Shown in pieces: positions 1,314 through 8,396 of a stretch of 64,000 nt of DNA (the stretch's first letter is position 1; every line of letters begins with the position of its first letter). Source of the DNA: Candidatus Latescibacterota bacterium (GTDB lineage Bacteria > Latescibacterota > UBA2968); the NCBI GenBank assembly GCA_965208125.1, contig OZ242320.1:4800001-4864000 (forward strand), given 5' to 3'. The position numbers and the translations under genes are program-made. The notes under the pieces are model-generated. The model saw only the letters and a program-made list of their open reading frames with translations. It did not search any database and was not told the DNA's origin.

Positions 1314-1400
1314 AAAGCCTGTATTCCTGCACGGCTATATTGACGCGACCATGGCTTCTGTCTTCTAATAGGACTTAACCAAAAAAGAAGGAGAAAGAAA

Positions 1401-3011
1401 ATGTGTAAGTACTTGACACTTGTCGCACTCATTGGACTCTTTTTCGCAGGTCCAGTCTCTGCTGATTCTCATACAGATCCAGACTTTAACGACGATGGTG
1501 TGGTCAATTTTGCCGACTTTTTGGCATTTGTAGGTCAGTTTGGGGCACGTCAGGGCGATGGGCGGTATGAGGCGAAGTATGACTTAGACAGCGATGGTGC
1601 GATAGGTTTTAGTGATTTTCTGATCTTTGCCAACAGTTATGGTCAACAAGTGCCGCCATCTGGTGGTGAGACGCCTGCCATCTACAAGGAGACCCTCGAC
1701 CTGTATGCTTTCAACGGTGATCCGGGGGGTATCACGTATGCCAATAACAGATTCTATGTGGTTGATTGGGCGGATGACAAGGTGTATGTGTACAATAGTA
1801 GTGGTCAGCGAGTAGCAAGCGCTGACTTCGACCTGGATAGCGACAACAGGGGTCCGACAGGTATCACGTATGCCAATAACAGATTCTATGTGGTTGATTG
1901 GGCGGATGCCAAGGTGTATGTGTACAATAGTAGTGGTCAGCGAGTAGAAAACGCTGACTTCGACTTGGATAGCGACAATAGTTATGCGACAGGTATCACG
2001 TATGCCAACAACAGATTCTATGTGGTTGATAATGATGATAACAAGGTGTATGTGTACACGAGTTCTGGTCAGCGCGTAGCAAGTGCTGACTTCGACCTGC
2101 GCAGATACAACAGTTCTCCGAGAGGTATCACGTATGCCAACAACAGATTCTATGTGGTTGATGATGAGTATTTGGATGAGAAGGTGTATGTGTACACCAG
2201 TAGTGGTCAGCGAGTAGCAAGTGCTGACTTCGACCTGAATAGCGGCAACAGTTATGCGACAGGTATCACGTATGCCAACAACAGATTCTATGTGGTTGAT
2301 AATGATGATAACAAGGTGTATGTGTACACGAGTTCTGGTCAGCGCGTAGCAAGTGCTGACTTCGACCTGCATAGCGGCAACAGTGCTCCGGGGGGTATCA
2401 CGTATGCCAACAACAAATTCTATGTGCTTGATGATGAGTTTTTTGGTATTAGTAATATTAGTAAGGTGTATGTGTACACCAGTAGTGGTCAGCGAGTAGC
2501 AAGTGCTGACTTCGACCTATATAGCGACAATAGTTCTCCGACAGATATCACGTATGCCAACAACAGATTCTATGTGGTTGATGGGTTTGATGACAAGGTG
2601 TATGTGTACACCAGTAGTGGTCAGCGCGTAGCAAGCGCTGACTTCGACCTGCATGCTTTCAACGGTGATCCGAGTGGTATCACGTATGCCAACAACAGGT
2701 TCTATGTGGTTGATGTGAGGGATGACAAGGTGTATGTGTACACCAGTAGTGGTCAGCGCGTAGCAAGTGCTGACTTCGACCTATATAGCGGTAATGGTGA
2801 TCCGAGCGGTATCACGTATGCCAACAACAGATTCTATGTGCTTGAGTGGTGGGATGAGAAGGTGTATGTGTACAGTAGTAGTGGTCAGCGAGTAGCAAGT
2901 GCTGACTTCGACCTGCATAGCGACAACAGTAATCCGGAGGGTATCACGTATGCCAACAACAGATTCTATGTGGTTGATTACTATGATGACAAGGTGTATG
3001 TGTACGAGTAG
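1401..3011 (+). CDS. Secreted protein: signal peptide, dockerin/EF-hand-like pair and 10 NHL-like beta-propeller repeats
   Basis: RBS aaggag; DFNDDGVVNFADF and DLDSDGAIGFSDF motifs; ten GITYANNRFYVV...KVYVY repeats. Confidence 0.9.
   Translation: MCKYLTLVALIGLFFAGPVSADSHTDPDFNDDGVVNFADFLAFVGQFGARQGDGRYEAKYDLDSDGAIGFSDFLIFANSYGQQVPPSGGETPAIYKETLDLYAFNGDPGGITYANNRFYVVDWADDKVYVYNSSGQRVASADFDLDSDNRGPTGITYANNRFYVVDWADAKVYVYNSSGQRVENADFDLDSDNSYATGITYANNRFYVVDNDDNKVYVYTSSGQRVASADFDLRRYNSSPRGITYANNRFYVVDDEYLDEKVYVYTSSGQRVASADFDLNSGNSYATGITYANNRFYVVDNDDNKVYVYTSSGQRVASADFDLHSGNSAPGGITYANNKFYVLDDEFFGISNISKVYVYTSSGQRVASADFDLYSDNSSPTDITYANNRFYVVDGFDDKVYVYTSSGQRVASADFDLHAFNGDPSGITYANNRFYVVDVRDDKVYVYTSSGQRVASADFDLYSGNGDPSGITYANNRFYVLEWWDEKVYVYSSSGQRVASADFDLHSDNSNPEGITYANNRFYVVDYYDDKVYVYE
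1698..3008 (+). repeat. Intragenic tandem array of 10 units of about 132 bp (44 aa) with two variable loops
   Basis: Constant gtatcacgtatgccaa(c/t)aacagattctatgtg and aaggtgtatgtgtac blocks recur ten times. Confidence 0.95.
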
Positions 3012-3250: not shown

Positions 3251-3454
3251 AAGAGGAACCTGCAACTGAACAGCGATTACACCTGGCAGGTCAGACTCTC
3301 CGATTTATTTGCATAAGTGATGTTATGCAGCACCTGTATAGCTTGTGATTTATCGGTTTGTAACGAAATGCAAATGGTCTCTCTGTGCGCTTTGAATACG
3401 ATGCGGGTCAAGTCCAGACCAGATAGGACTTAACCGAAAAAGAAGGAGAAAGAA
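3251..3454 (+). repeat. Direct repeat copy B, the leader of 3456-8396
   Basis: Matches 191-394. Confidence 0.95.
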
Positions 3455-3455
3455 A

Positions 3456-6400
3456 ATGTGTAAGCACTTGACACTTGTCGCACTCATTGGACTCTTTTTC
3501 GCAGGTCAAGTCTCTGCTACTTCTCATACAGATCCTGACTTTAACGACGATGGAATCGTCAATGAATTGGACTTAAGGCTCCTTATTTCCAATTGGGGAA
3601 CGCGAGCAGGTGGACCAAATTGGGATGCGAAGATCGATCTGAATAGTGATGGAATCGTCGATGAATTGGACTTAAGGCTCCTTATTTCCAATTGGGGCAA
3701 GACATTTCCAGTGATACTGAGCGAGCGCGATGTACTGGTGGCGCTATACAATGCGACGGGTGGCGTCAATTGGACAAATAGCACCCATTGGCTCAGTAGC
3801 AACGACATTTCCACCTGGCATGGTGTCAGCGTTTCTAACGGTTTGGTTACAGGCCTGGACCTTAGTAATAATAATCTGATGGGGGAGATTCCCGCGGAAT
3901 TGGGCAACTTGACCAACCTGACAAGGCTGGATCTTTCCTTCAACAGCATCACGGATGTGTCTGCGCTATCTGGACTGACCAACCTGGCAGTGCTGGGGCT
4001 TGACAACAACAGCATTTCGGACCTTTTGCCCCTAATTGCGAACAGGGGCTTGGGCAGTGGAGATAGGGTTGATGTGAGGAATAACCCACTGAGTGCCGCA
4101 TCGCTCAACACACACATTCCAGCCCTTCAGAATAGAGGAGTTAATGTGCTGTTTGACACGCCGCCAAAGATATACTGGACGGACTTGTGGACGGGTACGA
4201 TCCAGCGTGCGAACCTGGATGGGAGCGGGGTGGAAGATCTGGTTACGCACACGGGGGGAGTCAGTCTGGCGTTGGATTCGGGCGCTGGCAAGATGTACTG
4301 GACGGTCTTAGAATTGGACAAGATCCAGCGTGCGAACCTGGACGGGAGTGGGATAGAAGATCTGGTTACGCAGGCGGAGGCGGCATTCGGTCTGGCACTG
4401 GATCTGGGTGCTGGCAAGATGTATTGGACCGGAAGAGACAAGATTCAGCGTGCGAATCTGGATGGGAGTGGGGTGGAAGATTTGGTCATCACGCGCGGGA
4501 CAGATAACGATCCATTCGACTTGGCGCTGGTTCCGGGTGCTGGCAAGATGTACTGGACGGCCACTGAAGGGGGCACGATTCGGCGTGCGAATCTGGATGG
4601 GAGTGGGGTGGAAGACTTGGTCACGGGATTGGGAGGGCCATTCAGCTTGGCGCTGGATCTGGGTGCTGGTAAGATGTACTGGACGGCCATTAATGAGGGC
4701 AAGATCCAGCGAGCGAATCTGAATGGGAGTGATGTGGAAGATCTAATCACGGGATTGGGAGAGACATTCGGTCTGGCGTTGGATCCGGGTGCTGGCAAGA
4801 TGTACTGGACGGTGATTAAGGAGGACAAGGCCCAGCAGAAAAGCAACACGATTCGGCGAGCGAATCTGGATGGGAGTGGGGTGGAAGACTTCATCACGGG
4901 ATTGTATGCGCCAGGCGGCTTGGCGCTGGACCTGGGCAACCAGGGCGGTGATGTGATCCCGCCACCGCCTGAGGATCGGGAGGCATTGGTGGCACTGTAC
5001 AATGCGACGAACGGTTCCGGCTGGACGGACAAGACGAACTGGCTCAGCGACAGGCCGCTGGGAGAATGGTACGGCGTCACCGCGAATGCCCAGGACCGAG
5101 TGACCAGGCTTGTCCTCGACAACAACAATCTGACGGGCGCGATTCCTTCTGAACTGGGCAATCTCGCCAGCTTAGAGGTGCTGGCCCTCTGGTACAACAA
5201 CCTGACAGGTACGATCCCTGCGGAATTGGGCGACCTCGCCAACCTGCAAAGCCTGTTCCTCAGCCACAATAACCTGACAGGTGCGATCCCGTCTGAATTG
5301 GGCAACCTCGCCAACCTGGAAACGCTGGTCATCAGCCACAACAATCTGACGGGTGCGATCCCGTCTGAACTGGGCAACCTCGCCAACCTGGAAACGCTGG
5401 TCATCAGCCACAACAATCTGACGGGTGCGATCCCGTCTGAACTGGGCAACCTCGCCAACTTGACAGGACTGTACCTGGAAGACAATTCCGATTTGTTCGG
5501 TCCCTTACCTGAGACCTTGACTGCGCTTGGTAAACTCCAGGCACTGAATACTATAAATACGCAGTTGTGCATACCGTCTGATCCCGCGTTTCTGGCGTGG
5601 CTGCAATCGATAGAAGCTGGGGGACGGCTGTGCGTGGTGAGGATGGCGGTTGTGTCGGGTGGTGGGCAGCGCGCCGTTTCCGGAACGCGGCTCCCGCAAC
5701 CTGTGGAGGTGCAGGCCATCGGCGCGAACGACGTACCCGTGGAGTACGCGACGGTGGTGTTCTCGCCCGGAGAAGGGCACGGCACGGCGAATCCGGACGA
5801 GGCCACGACCGACAGATATGGGATCGTGCAGACGTTTTGGACGCTGGGACAGGTCGTGGGTGAACAGACGCTGACCGCGACCGTGGAGGGGCAGTCGGTT
5901 CAGGTGGTGGCCACGGCCACGGCGACGGCGACGGATCGGGAGGCATTGGTGGCACTGTACAACGCGACGAACGGTTCTGGCTGGACGAACAAGGCCAATT
6001 GGCTTAGCGACAGACCTATCGGGGAATGGCACGGCGTGACCACTGACGCATCGGGAAGGGTCGTCCGCCTTTCCCTCGAAGTGAACAATCTTAAGGGGCC
6101 GATCCCGTCTCAACTCGGCAATCTCGCCAACCTGACGCACCTGTACCTCACCACCAACAACCTGACGGGTCCGATCCCACCCTCACTCGGCAATCTCGCC
6201 AACCTGGAGGTCCTGTCCATCCAAAGCAACAACCTAACAGGTCCGATCCCACCCTCACTCGGCCGCCTGGTCAACCTCCAACGCCTGTATCTTGGCAACA
6301 ATCAACTGGCGGGTACAATCCCGCGTGACTTCACGCTGCTGTGCAACTTACGATACTTGTACCTTCATGGGAACGCACTGTCCGAACTGCCGTCGTCCGC

Positions 6401-8396
6401 CCATCCCTGCTTTGGCCAGGAATTGGAAGTGCTACATCTTCACGATAACGATTTTCTGGGGCCATTCCCTCCGTGGCTTGCCAATCTTACGAGCCTAACC
6501 TATTTGACATTGGGTGGTCCAAGCGATACCTGTGTGCCAGCAAACGACGGTTTCAGGGCCTGGGTGCGTGATCTCCACCAGCGCGGAGCTTTGGCTGAAT
6601 CAGACACTCCCACCTATTGCGGAGAGGGCTTCTGGTTCACCTGGCGGTTCGAGCAGACGACAACTGGCCGGAGCTGGACGGGGGCACGGCCGTTTGCCGC
6701 TCACAGAATTCGTGGAAAGCCTATGCTGCTCCGCATTTTCATGGGGATGCAAAACAACAACCACGGCAGTTGGGGCATCCAAAGTCCGCGCATGAAGATT
6801 ATGTTCTATGAGGGCATTGTGATCGATACGAGCGAGCCGACGGTTGACGTACCAGCAGGCGCCATCCCTCTATGGGCGACCCGCGACCAGGCGTTTCTTT
6901 TGGATCCATCCTACCGGCAGTCAATCAACATATTGATTCCGGGCCACCTGCCGATGCGAGGTCGCAGTACATCTATACGCATCGAGTTTGATCCAGATAA
7001 TACGTTTAGAGAAATAGTCGGGAACCGGATGCCTGCTCTTCATCATGATCCGCAATTCGCCCATTCGGATTGGGTTCGCATGATAGACTATGGGCAAACA
7101 TACGAGATACTGTCAGGTTACGACGCGAATCCCCGAGCTGGATGGCCTATTCAAGAAATGCCACCGGCCAAAGTCTATCTGATGCCTTTAATGAAATCGC
7201 AATCGGACGACAGAGGCATGATTCGTGCGATTAATGATCTTGTCAGGAAGGGACCGAGCCACTCGTTCTTCTGGGAAACACAGAATCTGCTCCCCATTAA
7301 GGATCTCACCCTTCACAGCGGGCGTGGTCTGATGTTGGGATATCATCCGACGGACGATAACAAGTTGTTCGTATTGAGTGCGTTGGAGGCGAGCTTGCTG
7401 TTCAGAACGTGGGACAACGAGTTCGATTATATTGTGGGTCTTATACCAGAAGGCGGAGGTATCGCAAATGGCACTGGAGGAAGGCTTTCTGTTGTAGGTT
7501 ATAAAGGAGGTTCGCCGAACAACGCGCTGGCACACGAACTTGGGCACAATATGGACCTTGGTCATGCGCCGTGCGGAGTTACTGGTTTCTTCAACAAAGT
7601 GGTGATCGACGACAGCTACCCGTGGGATGACGGCAAAATCGGTGGTCCCAGCGTTCGCGGGGTTGATCTCGGTATCGAGAGCCTTCGGCGCAACCATGTG
7701 CGGGCATGGGATGGCGAATATGTAAAGTCAATCGATCGTCCGATGTTGTTGGATCCAGATGAAACTGAGTTCATAGTAGATGGGGACACGCCGGATTTGA
7801 TGAGCTATTGTCGCGAGGACACCTATCCACGCCAATGGATCAGCGCGTATCACTTTGACAAGGCGTTAAACTACCGGCAACCAGCGACGAGTAAGCCAGC
7901 TACAAGCACTGCGCCTGTCAACGCACTGCTCCTTTCGGGCGGACAGAGGCCGGATGGGGAGATGTTTCTTTGGCCAGCTTTCGTAGGGGAAGCCAGTCCA
8001 CAACTGCCGCAAGAAGGAGGCCAGTACAGGATCGGCGGGCAGGACGCACAGGGCAGAGAGTTGTTCTCCTTTGACTTCGACATGACGGAGGTTGCAGACG
8101 GGGAAGGCGCCTCATTGTTTGTGTTCGCGGTTCCGGTACGGCAGGAGTGGGCGAACGCACTTGCGCGTATCACGCTCACAGGACCGGAGGGGGCGGCCAC
8201 ACTGGACAGAGACGGTGCGGCGGCTGCGGTTCTTCTGCGGGATTCGACCGGGGAGGTGCGGGGTATCTTGCGTGACTGGAAAGATAGTGCGCTAACGGCA
8301 AGCGCCATTGCTGAAGCATTAGGGGATCCGAACATCAAGGATTGGGATGTCCAGATCAGCCGCGGTATCCCGAACGCCTCCTACTGGAAACGGTGA
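3456..8396 (+). CDS. Large secreted modular protein: dockerin-like, LRR blocks, 6 YWTD (LDL-receptor class B-like) repeats, Ig-like domain, M66-like zinc metalloprotease
   Basis: Signal peptide; duplicated DxNxDGIVxELDL; LxxNNLTGxIPxELGNL plant-type LRRs; KMYWT...IQRANLDGSGVEDL repeats; HELGHNMDLGH near 7533 with a Met-turn-like DLMSY. Confidence 0.9.
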   Translation: MCKHLTLVALIGLFFAGQVSATSHTDPDFNDDGIVNELDLRLLISNWGTRAGGPNWDAKIDLNSDGIVDELDLRLLISNWGKTFPVILSERDVLVALYNATGGVNWTNSTHWLSSNDISTWHGVSVSNGLVTGLDLSNNNLMGEIPAELGNLTNLTRLDLSFNSITDVSALSGLTNLAVLGLDNNSISDLLPLIANRGLGSGDRVDVRNNPLSAASLNTHIPALQNRGVNVLFDTPPKIYWTDLWTGTIQRANLDGSGVEDLVTHTGGVSLALDSGAGKMYWTVLELDKIQRANLDGSGIEDLVTQAEAAFGLALDLGAGKMYWTGRDKIQRANLDGSGVEDLVITRGTDNDPFDLALVPGAGKMYWTATEGGTIRRANLDGSGVEDLVTGLGGPFSLALDLGAGKMYWTAINEGKIQRANLNGSDVEDLITGLGETFGLALDPGAGKMYWTVIKEDKAQQKSNTIRRANLDGSGVEDFITGLYAPGGLALDLGNQGGDVIPPPPEDREALVALYNATNGSGWTDKTNWLSDRPLGEWYGVTANAQDRVTRLVLDNNNLTGAIPSELGNLASLEVLALWYNNLTGTIPAELGDLANLQSLFLSHNNLTGAIPSELGNLANLETLVISHNNLTGAIPSELGNLANLETLVISHNNLTGAIPSELGNLANLTGLYLEDNSDLFGPLPETLTALGKLQALNTINTQLCIPSDPAFLAWLQSIEAGGRLCVVRMAVVSGGGQRAVSGTRLPQPVEVQAIGANDVPVEYATVVFSPGEGHGTANPDEATTDRYGIVQTFWTLGQVVGEQTLTATVEGQSVQVVATATATATDREALVALYNATNGSGWTNKANWLSDRPIGEWHGVTTDASGRVVRLSLEVNNLKGPIPSQLGNLANLTHLYLTTNNLTGPIPPSLGNLANLEVLSIQSNNLTGPIPPSLGRLVNLQRLYLGNNQLAGTIPRDFTLLCNLRYLYLHGNALSELPSSAHPCFGQELEVLHLHDNDFLGPFPPWLANLTSLTYLTLGGPSDTCVPANDGFRAWVRDLHQRGALAESDTPTYCGEGFWFTWRFEQTTTGRSWTGARPFAAHRIRGKPMLLRIFMGMQNNNHGSWGIQSPRMKIMFYEGIVIDTSEPTVDVPAGAIPLWATRDQAFLLDPSYRQSINILIPGHLPMRGRSTSIRIEFDPDNTFREIVGNRMPALHHDPQFAHSDWVRMIDYGQTYEILSGYDANPRAGWPIQEMPPAKVYLMPLMKSQSDDRGMIRAINDLVRKGPSHSFFWETQNLLPIKDLTLHSGRGLMLGYHPTDDNKLFVLSALEASLLFRTWDNEFDYIVGLIPEGGGIANGTGGRLSVVGYKGGSPNNALAHELGHNMDLGHAPCGVTGFFNKVVIDDSYPWDDGKIGGPSVRGVDLGIESLRRNHVRAWDGEYVKSIDRPMLLDPDETEFIVDGDTPDLMSYCREDTYPRQWISAYHFDKALNYRQPATSKPATSTAPVNALLLSGGQRPDGEMFLWPAFVGEASPQLPQEGGQYRIGGQDAQGRELFSFDFDMTEVADGEGASLFVFAVPVRQEWANALARITLTGPEGAATLDRDGAAAAVLLRDSTGEVRGILRDWKDSALTASAIAEALGDPNIKDWDVQISRGIPNASYWKR

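Follow-up and report, generated by a model that had tools for sequence, protein, structure and literature searches.

We describe a gene near one end of a 64,000-nucleotide stretch of DNA from Candidatus Latescibacterota bacterium. This stretch (the window, in what follows) comprises positions 4800001-4864000 of a 5,747,750-bp genome in a single contig, with 51% G+C and 96% completeness; positions below are those of the window, 1-64000, unless they are called genome positions. The gene encodes a probably secreted, dockerin-like protein with ten blades that resemble NHL repeats, and the blades are much alike except in two loops. How did ten copies of one unit come to differ mainly in two short segments? 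A note made earlier from the sequence alone proposed an antibody-like binding surface, diversified by conversion between repeats and possibly by the targeted mutagenesis of a diversity-generating retroelement (DGR). The reading that we favour, and consider likely, is that of a secreted binding protein in which a dockerin-like module precedes two five-bladed NHL-like propellers, made of ten recently amplified blades, with no dedicated mutator.

Ten blades and their variable loops

The protein begins with a probable signal peptide and a dockerin-like calcium-binding pair (Table 1), joined to the repeats by a short linker. The dockerin family PF00404 scores 21.8 bits on the protein in hmmscan, slightly below the cut-off of 22.9, and 27.1 bits, above it, in a six-frame search of the genome (genome positions 4801482-4801631). 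Ten tandem units follow, each 44 amino acids long except unit 4 (46), unit 6 (50) and unit 10, which ends after 33. The Pfam family NHL (PF01436) matches them with 72 bits summed over the repeats (cut-off 20, E 2.2e-20), each repeat covering only positions 2-21 of the 28 in the profile. A match to DUF5128, a six-bladed propeller family, scores 67.8 bits.

To compare the nine full units, we defined loop nucleotides as codons 3-5, 7-10 and 24-27 (33 nt) and framework as the other 99 nt. Polymorphic columns number 45 of 132 and are concentrated in the loops, where 28 of 33 nucleotides are polymorphic against 17 of 99 in the framework (Fisher P = 3e-12). Nucleotide identity between units is 89-99% in the framework and 39-94% in the loops; the amino-acid identity between blades has a median of 75.8% (range 66.7-95.5%, 45 pairs). 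Loop 2 varies in length as well, indels giving it 4, 6 or 10 codons. The earlier note had described ten 44-residue repeats, nearly invariant outside two loops. The concentration of variation in the loops holds, and every loop string quoted there is reproduced in our codon alignment of the ten units, but the framework identities just given and a period that is not always 44 residues qualify the description.

The most variable positions are the same in 272 canonical repeats from 109 homologs, in which the strands are conserved: entropy is above 3.3 bits at positions 7, 8, 10, 24 and 25, and most strand positions have less than 1 bit. Inside loop 1 a conserved N and P are retained in nearly all blades. 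The hypervariable sites of the focal gene favour D (18.6%), Y (11.4%) and W (5.7%). Measured against the proteome background, the variable sites of the whole family in this genome (ten genes, see below) are enriched in D (3.65-fold), W (3.2-fold), N (2.4-fold) and S (2.3-fold) and depleted in L, V, I, K, P, M and C (binomial P down to 4e-34). The loops had been called rich in aromatic and acidic residues; this is true of D and W in the family and of Y in the focal gene, but not of F, which is not enriched.

Third codon bases, too, had been described as preserved in the variable codons. They are in codon columns 3, 5 and 8 of loop 1, but not in loop 2, where codon 25 reads GCG, GAT, GAG, TTT, AGG, TGG or TAT, and loop third bases vary more than those of the framework: the mean pairwise difference at codon position 3 is 0.26 in loop 1, 0.42 in loop 2 and 0.10 in the framework. 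At codon positions 1 and 2 of the loops it is 0.36-0.57, above loop position 3. This lower variability of position 3 needs no special mutational process, because any ratio of nonsynonymous to synonymous change (dN/dS, or omega) of at least 1 yields it.

Table 1. Positions of the gene and its parts in the window.
Feature	Position	Strand	Remarks
ORF (open reading frame), secreted dockerin-like protein with ten NHL-like blades	1401..3011	+	536 aa, stop included
Shared 5' module: ribosome-binding region, start codon, signal peptide, dockerin start	1368..1508	+	recurs at 3423-3563
Probable Sec signal peptide, aa 1-21, cleavage after VSA	1401..1463	+	inferred from sequence (hydrophobic N-terminus)
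Dockerin type I-like calcium-binding pair, aa 28-77	1482..1631	+	PF00404; helices 37-47 and 70-79 in the model
N-terminal strand, aa 95-100, YKETLD, counterpart of a blade's outer D strand	1683..1700	+	DSSP of the model
Starts of the ten tandem units	1698, 1830, 1962, 2094, 2232, 2364, 2514, 2646, 2778, 2910	+	
Blades 1-5, first five-bladed propeller (predicted)	1698..2363	+	model residues 87-317 align to five-bladed glutaminyl cyclases
Blades 1-5, loop 1 (D-A)	1704-1727, 1836-1859, 1968-1991, 2100-2123, 2238-2261	+	
Blades 1-5, loop 2 (B-C)	1767-1778, 1899-1910, 2031-2042, 2163-2180, 2301-2312	+	
Blades 6-10, second five-bladed propeller (predicted)	2364..3008	+	NHL-domain chains align to residues 311-535 or 308-536
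Blades 6-10, loop 1 (D-A)	2370-2393, 2520-2543, 2652-2675, 2784-2807, 2916-2939	+	
Blades 6-10, loop 2 (B-C)	2433-2462, 2583-2594, 2715-2726, 2847-2858, 2979-2990	+	10 codons in 2433-2462
121-bp exact tract, blades 3 and 5: half of loop 1, framework, loop 2	1980..2100	+	identical to 2250..2370
Second copy of the 121-bp exact tract	2250..2370	+	

Predicted structure of the propellers

An AlphaFold2 model built with a 35-sequence alignment has a mean pLDDT (predicted local distance difference test score) of 86.8, mostly above 90 in the repeats, with a dip at residues 311-320 and values below 50 at residues 1-24; the predicted template modelling score (pTM) is 0.63. In the model, DSSP assigns four strands to each unit: GITYA, RFYVVD, KVYVY and a short DF. 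The best matches found by VIA-align are the glutaminyl cyclases 3mbr (Z 25.7), 3nol (Z 25.0) and 2iwa (Z 24.9), which align to model residues 85-321 over 214-222 of 234-254 residues, with root-mean-square deviations (rmsd) of 2.1-3.5 Å. For 3mbr these values are 2.1 Å and 215 of 236 residues, on model residues 87-317; sequence identity to the cyclases is 14%. We take 3mbr, 3nol and 2iwa to be five-bladed propellers, and entry length agrees with this. The NHL domains of TRIM2/3/71, Brat, Lin41 and Thin match residues of about 94-313 or about 311-536 with Z 18-20.6, the alignments to the second half having Z 18-19.5. Classical NHL domains are six-bladed, and NHL chains of 274-292 residues align over 201-214 residues only. 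Foldseek with the whole model returned generic propeller matches only (template modelling scores 0.2-0.3).

The model consists of two five-bladed rings. We read it in this way because the VIA-align ranges fall on residues 87-317 and 311-536 and because the units come in sets of five in paralogs and homologs. In these proteins the unit occurs in sets of 5 or 10, with a Gly- or Ser-rich linker directly after the third strand (C) of the fifth blade. In the focal protein nothing follows strand C of blade 10, and the five-blade modules of its paralogs likewise end with strand C. A short N-terminal strand at residues 95-100 probably closes the ring in the manner of a 'velcro'. A single ten-bladed ring was also considered; it is rejected by the match ranges and by the 5+5 linkers in homologs.

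On which face do the loops lie? The connections of a four-stranded antiparallel meander alternate between faces, and for this reason loop 1, which leads from strand D to the next strand A, and loop 2, between strands B and C, should be found on one and the same face of the propeller. The C-D connection, with the mildly variable residues that follow KVYVY, would be on the opposite one. The strand topology of the predicted model (DSSP) agrees to this extent with the earlier expectation that both loops share a face. Each ring would present ten different loops on that face. Loops that are acidic and rich in Asn and Ser and in Trp and Tyr might suit carbohydrates or basic protein surfaces, and the dockerin-like module suggests attachment to a cohesin partner. 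We infer that the protein is secreted, tethered through a cohesin partner and used for binding.

Homogenisation, selection and mutation

The likeness of the blades has probably been shaped in part by exchange or copying of segments. The 121-bp tract common to blades 3 and 5 is the sole exact repeat of at least 60 bp in the region. It takes in 33 of the 45 polymorphic sites consecutively, for which the global P in a Sawyer-type permutation is 0.0145; among the eight top unit pairs, seven have pairwise P <= 0.04. Units 1 and 8 have a 20-mer in common (1705 and 2653), which is also found in blade 1 of a paralog 16 kb upstream (genome position 4785208). Both matches bear out the loop mosaics that had been noticed in the sequence, and the tract, together with the permutation test, supports recombination or duplication and with it the proposed conversion between repeats.

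Does the scaffold then evolve slowly, or do the loops evolve fast? The closest paralog (genome positions 4784712-4786526) is 81% identical to the focal gene. Between the two, synonymous divergence (dS) is 0.33 in the loops, where nonsynonymous divergence (dN) is 0.46, against 0.148 in the framework and 0.306 in the adjoining dockerin. The loops show background dS and the scaffold about half of it, which speaks for a homogenised scaffold and not for hypermutated loops. Framework identity within the focal gene (93.6%) is, moreover, equal to that between the two genes (93.0%). According to section 12 of PMC9218822, gene-specific blade nucleotides are the signature of independently amplified or concertedly evolving propellers. 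We counted as gene-specific those framework nucleotides that are present in two thirds or more of a gene's own blades and in no other gene of the family. Two adjacent five-blade genes, 5674288 and 5676426 (genome positions 5,674,288-5,678,471), have ten each, a clear signature of concerted evolution or independent amplification. In a same-genus relative (G007:C134), protein-identical blades occur in two or three copies and a two-blade unit is duplicated; the arrangement there is apparently 7+5 blades, not 5+5. These identical duplicated blades hint at polymorphism in repeat number and repeat order.

Selection differs sharply between loops and framework. Between the blades of the focal gene, dN/dS by the method of Nei and Gojobori (NG86) is 1.72 in the loops and 0.24 in the framework. 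A minimum-change count gives 1.45 versus 0.30 in the focal gene (Fisher P = 0.02) and 1.76 versus 0.31 in the three ten-blade genes (Fisher P = 3e-5); across the minimum-change and paralog comparisons loop omega ranges from 1.39 to 1.76. A different picture emerges from an older member of the family (genome positions 4017489-4020458), which is 87% identical to its ortholog in another relative (G008). In this pair omega is 0.29 in the loops, 0.21 in the framework and 0.29 in the remainder. The loops are conserved once established, because the omega of orthologous loops is like that of the framework. The protein P0037 was considered as an allele of this genome's P0067, from a strain of the same species, and was rejected: the two are too divergent.

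That the same positions vary throughout the family, that their residue use is biased and that orthologous loops are conserved suggests that the loops are functional once fixed. The data fit a cycle of amplification, then fast change of the loops, near or above the neutral rate, and finally conservation; they do not fit continuous randomisation. Adaptive diversification is plausible but unproven.

From one public run, which holds 49% of the window's words, the Logan contigs cover the region in 79 short pieces, none of them across the array and 28 fitting two places. They carry 14 variant letters in 1698-3008, of which 12 are within loops; most lie 31-35 letters from a contig end, as paralogous blades produce. 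Such variants are uninformative about the population because fragmentary contigs cannot separate alleles from paralogous repeats.

If the loops are not hypermutated, is a DGR needed at all? In such a system a reverse transcriptase would rewrite loop codons from an adenine-rich template, and the NNT/NNC codons of the array had been put down to adenine mutagenesis of AAY codons as one possible source. Solely the NNT/NNC look of three codon columns in loop 1 speaks for it. The 5.75-Mb genome yielded no RVT_1 match (PF00078) at E <= 0.01 in a search whose controls were positive in 3 of 14 known genomes, and no match to the Avd family. Nor is there a template repeat outside coding sequence, since the array matches genomic DNA in 18 places and every one of them is within one of the ten family ORFs. 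In 1634 ordered pairs of equal-length repeats from the genome, adenines account for a mean of 27% and a maximum of 55% of the differences, the A content of the repeats being 26%, and not one pair has 80% or more of its differences at one partner's adenines. Columns with consensus A are no more variable than the rest (13 of 30 versus 27 of 69, P = 0.82), and all 30 instances of the three Asn codons within or adjoining the loops are intact AAY. Finally, loop length varies from 4 to 10 codons, and such length changes are not known from DGRs. The search that the earlier note had recommended, for an adenine-rich template repeat and a DGR reverse transcriptase, thus found neither in the assembled genome, for which DGR mutagenesis is refuted; we regard it as the least credible of all the readings considered here. 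The gene is like DGR targets in its constant scaffold, its variable, putatively ligand-binding residues and the NNY look of a few codons. It is unlike them in having no reverse transcriptase, template repeat or adenine specificity and in its loop indels, and it is not a member of the class. An NNY codon pattern within repeats is insufficient to call a DGR.

The reading that we consider likely would work as follows. The four strands of each blade would form a constant scaffold, kept alike by purifying selection and also by unequal crossing-over or gene conversion, both within the array and between it and the paralog 16 kb upstream. On one face of the ring, amino-acid change and small indels would be tolerated or favoured in the D-A and B-C connections, so that every blade would contribute a different pair of loops to a shared binding face. 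The variation would be supplied by point mutations of the ordinary kind, by indels and by the shuffling of blade segments, with no dedicated mutator; in a young array, loop changes would be accepted at a rate near the neutral one or above it, and each loop set would be conserved once established.

Several observations weigh against this reading. The contrast in dS between framework and dockerin comes from few sites (P = 0.089). The focal gene has no gene-specific framework nucleotides, and at two near-fixed sites it differs from the paralog; homogenisation within the focal gene cannot, on these sequences, be told apart from a shared recent origin with the paralog. Loop omega does not exceed 1 significantly (P = 0.33 within the gene, 0.077 in the three genes, 0.20 against the paralog), and relaxed constraint alone could be the source of the pattern. 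When all 55 canonical repeats of the genome are taken together, the minimum-change estimate for the loops drops to 0.68, probably through saturation. An ortholog of the focal gene is absent from 20 relatives, the best match in another species being 72-74% identical and of different architecture. The common face of the loops, moreover, follows in the model from topology, not from coordinates. Of the strong diversifying selection suggested earlier, the elevation of the loops far above the framework stands, and an omega significantly above 1 does not; of the antibody-like surface, the analysis supports the constant scaffold and the pair of variable loops in every blade, with ongoing or adaptive diversification left unproven (P for omega above 1, 0.08-0.33).

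How do other explanations fare? In the simplest, the loops are unconstrained surface connections between strands under strong purifying selection, with neither adaptive diversification nor a recognition repertoire. A loop omega of 1.4-1.8 that is statistically indistinguishable from 1 is what this predicts, and a loop dS of 0.33 that equals the dockerin background (0.31) is the expected mutational load only. Unconstrained connections would not, however, be enriched 2.3-3.65-fold in D, W, N and S and depleted in aliphatic residues, K, P, M and C, nor keep an N and a P inside loop 1 in nearly all blades, nor be conserved between species like the scaffold, as the loops of the older member are (omega 0.29 versus 0.21). 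We think this account unlikely. Still less probable is programmed variation of the kind seen in antigenic variation, in which the five family genes within 30 kb and their blades would serve as donor cassettes and frequent gene conversion would switch the exposed loops. The mosaic tract, the several blade pairs with pairwise permutation P below 0.04, the loop-1 20-mer that recurs in blade 1 of the paralog, the same-strand arrangement of the family genes at 4,774-4,803 kb and the duplicated 5' module and flanks all speak for it. But each copy is a complete ORF that has a start and a signal peptide of its own, and silent cassettes are absent; between genes, even the best-matching loops reach only 69-86% identity, which indicates no very recent transfer; and orthologous loops in the older member are stable between species.

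The fold raises one more alternative: a catalyst like glutaminyl cyclase or Vgb lyase, and not a binder. The top structural matches are indeed cyclases (Z 25.7), Glu_cyclase_2 and Vgb_lyase give weak Pfam matches (20.5 and 44.3 bits), and the streptogramin B lactonase 2qc5 matches in sequence with E 5e-6. Both Pfam scores are below their cut-offs (22.3 and 50), though, identity to the cyclases is 14%, and ten near-identical blades leave no unique active-site residues. Giant proteins contain up to 14-28 copies of the module, a repetition that is common among modules that bind. An enzyme is accordingly very improbable, and a binding protein of recently amplified blades remains the reading that we prefer.

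Known systems, gene family and island

The array is a bacterial extracellular counterpart of two known kinds of repeat, highly repetitive propellers and fungal high-internal-conservation (HIC) repeats. PMC9218822 describes the former as continuously amplified and defines them by consecutive blades with a median pairwise identity above 60%; the median reported above, 75.8%, exceeds this. The focal array and its family also resemble them in the low synonymous divergence between blades, in a blade number that is a multiple of propeller size and, in family genes, in gene-specific blade nucleotides (Figure 2 legend of PMC9218822). The focal protein differs in being NHL-like, five-bladed, extracellular and dockerin-linked, with its differences in two loops; the term 'NHL' appears nowhere in the main text of PMC9218822.

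The HIC WD40 repeats of fungal NOD-like receptors (NLRs) were reportedly treated by Dyrka and colleagues in 2014. A recent preprint (10.1101/2025.01.13.632504) describes fungal WD40 repeats with concerted evolution, hypervariable and selected sites on the interaction face, and a double propeller. The repeats of HET-D/HET-E, in that account, are like the present array in that recombination keeps them near-identical, in having few hypervariable positions, in forming a double propeller and in the shuffling of repeats between paralogs. Variability at specific positions is found here as well (28 of 33 versus 17 of 99 nucleotides, and the same positions in the 272 repeats), while its placement on an interaction face follows from topology. 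HET-D and HET-E are, however, intracellular NLRs whose WD40 propellers have seven blades and, in each repeat, four variable positions; diversifying selection has been demonstrated for them, and their ligand is HET-C (10.1101/2025.01.13.632504). The focal protein, by contrast, is a secreted protein of a bacterium, its rings have five NHL-like blades with about 11 variable codons in each, and its loop omega is not significantly above 1. On the focal protein Pfam finds the dockerin-like module and the propeller repeats only, without the NACHT/NB-ARC or effector domain of an NLR.

NHL-domain proteins (PF01436: TRIM2/3/71, Brat, Lin41) are alike by profile match (72 bits) and structural Z (18-20.6) and unlike in blade number: the model has five blades per ring, not the six of the NHL architecture, and fits five-bladed glutaminyl cyclases better. 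It is the five-bladed fold of the glutaminyl cyclases (PF05096) that is matched, the profile score of 20.5 bits being below the cut-off of 22.3, with a best stretch of 26 residues. In the open-access literature that we searched, no paper described bacterial arrays of NHL-type repeats with hypervariable loops. When expressed recombinantly in cyanobacteria, NHL-domain 'eukaryotic-like proteins' from sponge symbionts are reported to alter phagocytosis and uptake by sponge cells (PMC13747020).

Five of the ten family genes lie on the same strand at genome positions 4,774-4,803 kb, in an island that also encodes secreted proteins with leucine-rich repeats (LRRs), YWTD, subtilase/VWA and laminin-G domains, many of them with the same dockerin-like module. 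The shared 5' module of the focal gene and its second copy form a direct repeat of 141 nt with 94% identity (1368-1508 and 3423-3563). The second copy precedes the next gene (3456-8396), and the proteins of the focal gene and of this next gene begin with MCKYLTLVALIGLFFAGPVSA and MCKHLTLVALIGLFFAGQVSA. The shared module suggests that different cargo domains have been recombined behind one export and anchor cassette.

How widespread is the propeller? Public data contain 4182 cluster representatives of the five-blade module at E <= 1e-3; at E <= 1e-30 the number is 459. The five-blade query aligns as a single module in the whole-library search, with up to 14-28 occurrences in one giant protein. 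Named homologs come from metagenome-assembled genomes labelled Gammaproteobacteria, Gemmatimonadetes, Candidatus Poribacteria and Rhodospirillaceae, four distant taxa that hint at horizontal spread or a shared habitat. A scan of JGI metagenomes for relatives gave 34 pattern matches, none confirmed, and exact look-up of the focal protein and its paralog in a collection of 15 billion proteins found neither.

The focal protein is a bacterial example of how a binding protein can be built: one blade copied ten times, with copies that differ only at putative ligand contacts. The five-bladed NHL-like module is widespread and uncharacterised. If the loops set ligand specificity, it would offer a natural scaffold for engineered binders and a handle on how uncultured symbionts recognise hosts or particles. 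A bolder idea, which we hold to be doubtful, is that bacteria build an extracellular recognition repertoire from five-bladed variable-loop modules. Blades would be amplified and shuffled, and their loops diversified, within a genomic island before they are fixed as specific binders; cohesin-dockerin pairing would display the modules on the cell, and distant phyla on the same host would share them. It would then be a germline-encoded counterpart of variable lymphocyte receptors or of fungal NLR sensors, by which symbionts read or evade their host.

The neighbourhood of the focal gene has further features. The next gene (3456-8396, forward strand) encodes a secreted, internally repetitive protein of 1646 amino acids with the same signal peptide and dockerin, LRR blocks (72-nt units, 85% matches), six YWTD or LDL-receptor class B repeats (126-nt units), a Big_1-like domain and a weak M66-peptidase-like stretch at its C-terminus. 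The flanks are duplicated: 191-394 recurs at 3251-3454 (97%), 394-497 at 7786-7889 (89%) and 519-761 at 7905-8147 (93%). Upstream of the focal gene lies a fragment of the 3' end of the 1646-residue gene, with an ORF (576-788) that repeats its C-terminal peptide, and downstream, at 3251-3300, a fragment of the gene that ends at 256. These duplicated flanks and fragments are traces of segmental rearrangement in the island.

Three large paralogs of 1233, 1235 and 1278 amino acids (genome positions 4,774,371-4,795,591) have near-identical N-terminal halves, which include two near-identical domains of about 100 residues. After the N-terminal half they carry 5+5 or 5 NHL-like blades; in the third, an array of near-identical 22-residue LRRs takes the place of the second propeller. 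On the reverse strand of the focal gene, an ORF of 262 amino acids (1584-2372) crosses the repeats, and a promoter and terminator scan gave only uninformative antisense promoter-like matches, seven of them, one per repeat. The ORF and the matches alike seem to be side effects of the periodicity of the sequence.

Against 56 dockerin matches, only 5 cohesin matches occur in the genome, two of them in very large ORFs at 2,271-2,278 kb. The organism has no obvious cellulosome context. Within the window, a protein of 268 amino acids (32074-32880, forward strand) combines a signal peptide, a cohesin-like domain scoring 23.9-25.3 bits, at the cut-off, and a C-terminal FlgD-Ig or type IX sorting-like domain whose sorting-domain scores are below cut-offs. 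It is a candidate surface anchor for the dockerin proteins of this genome.

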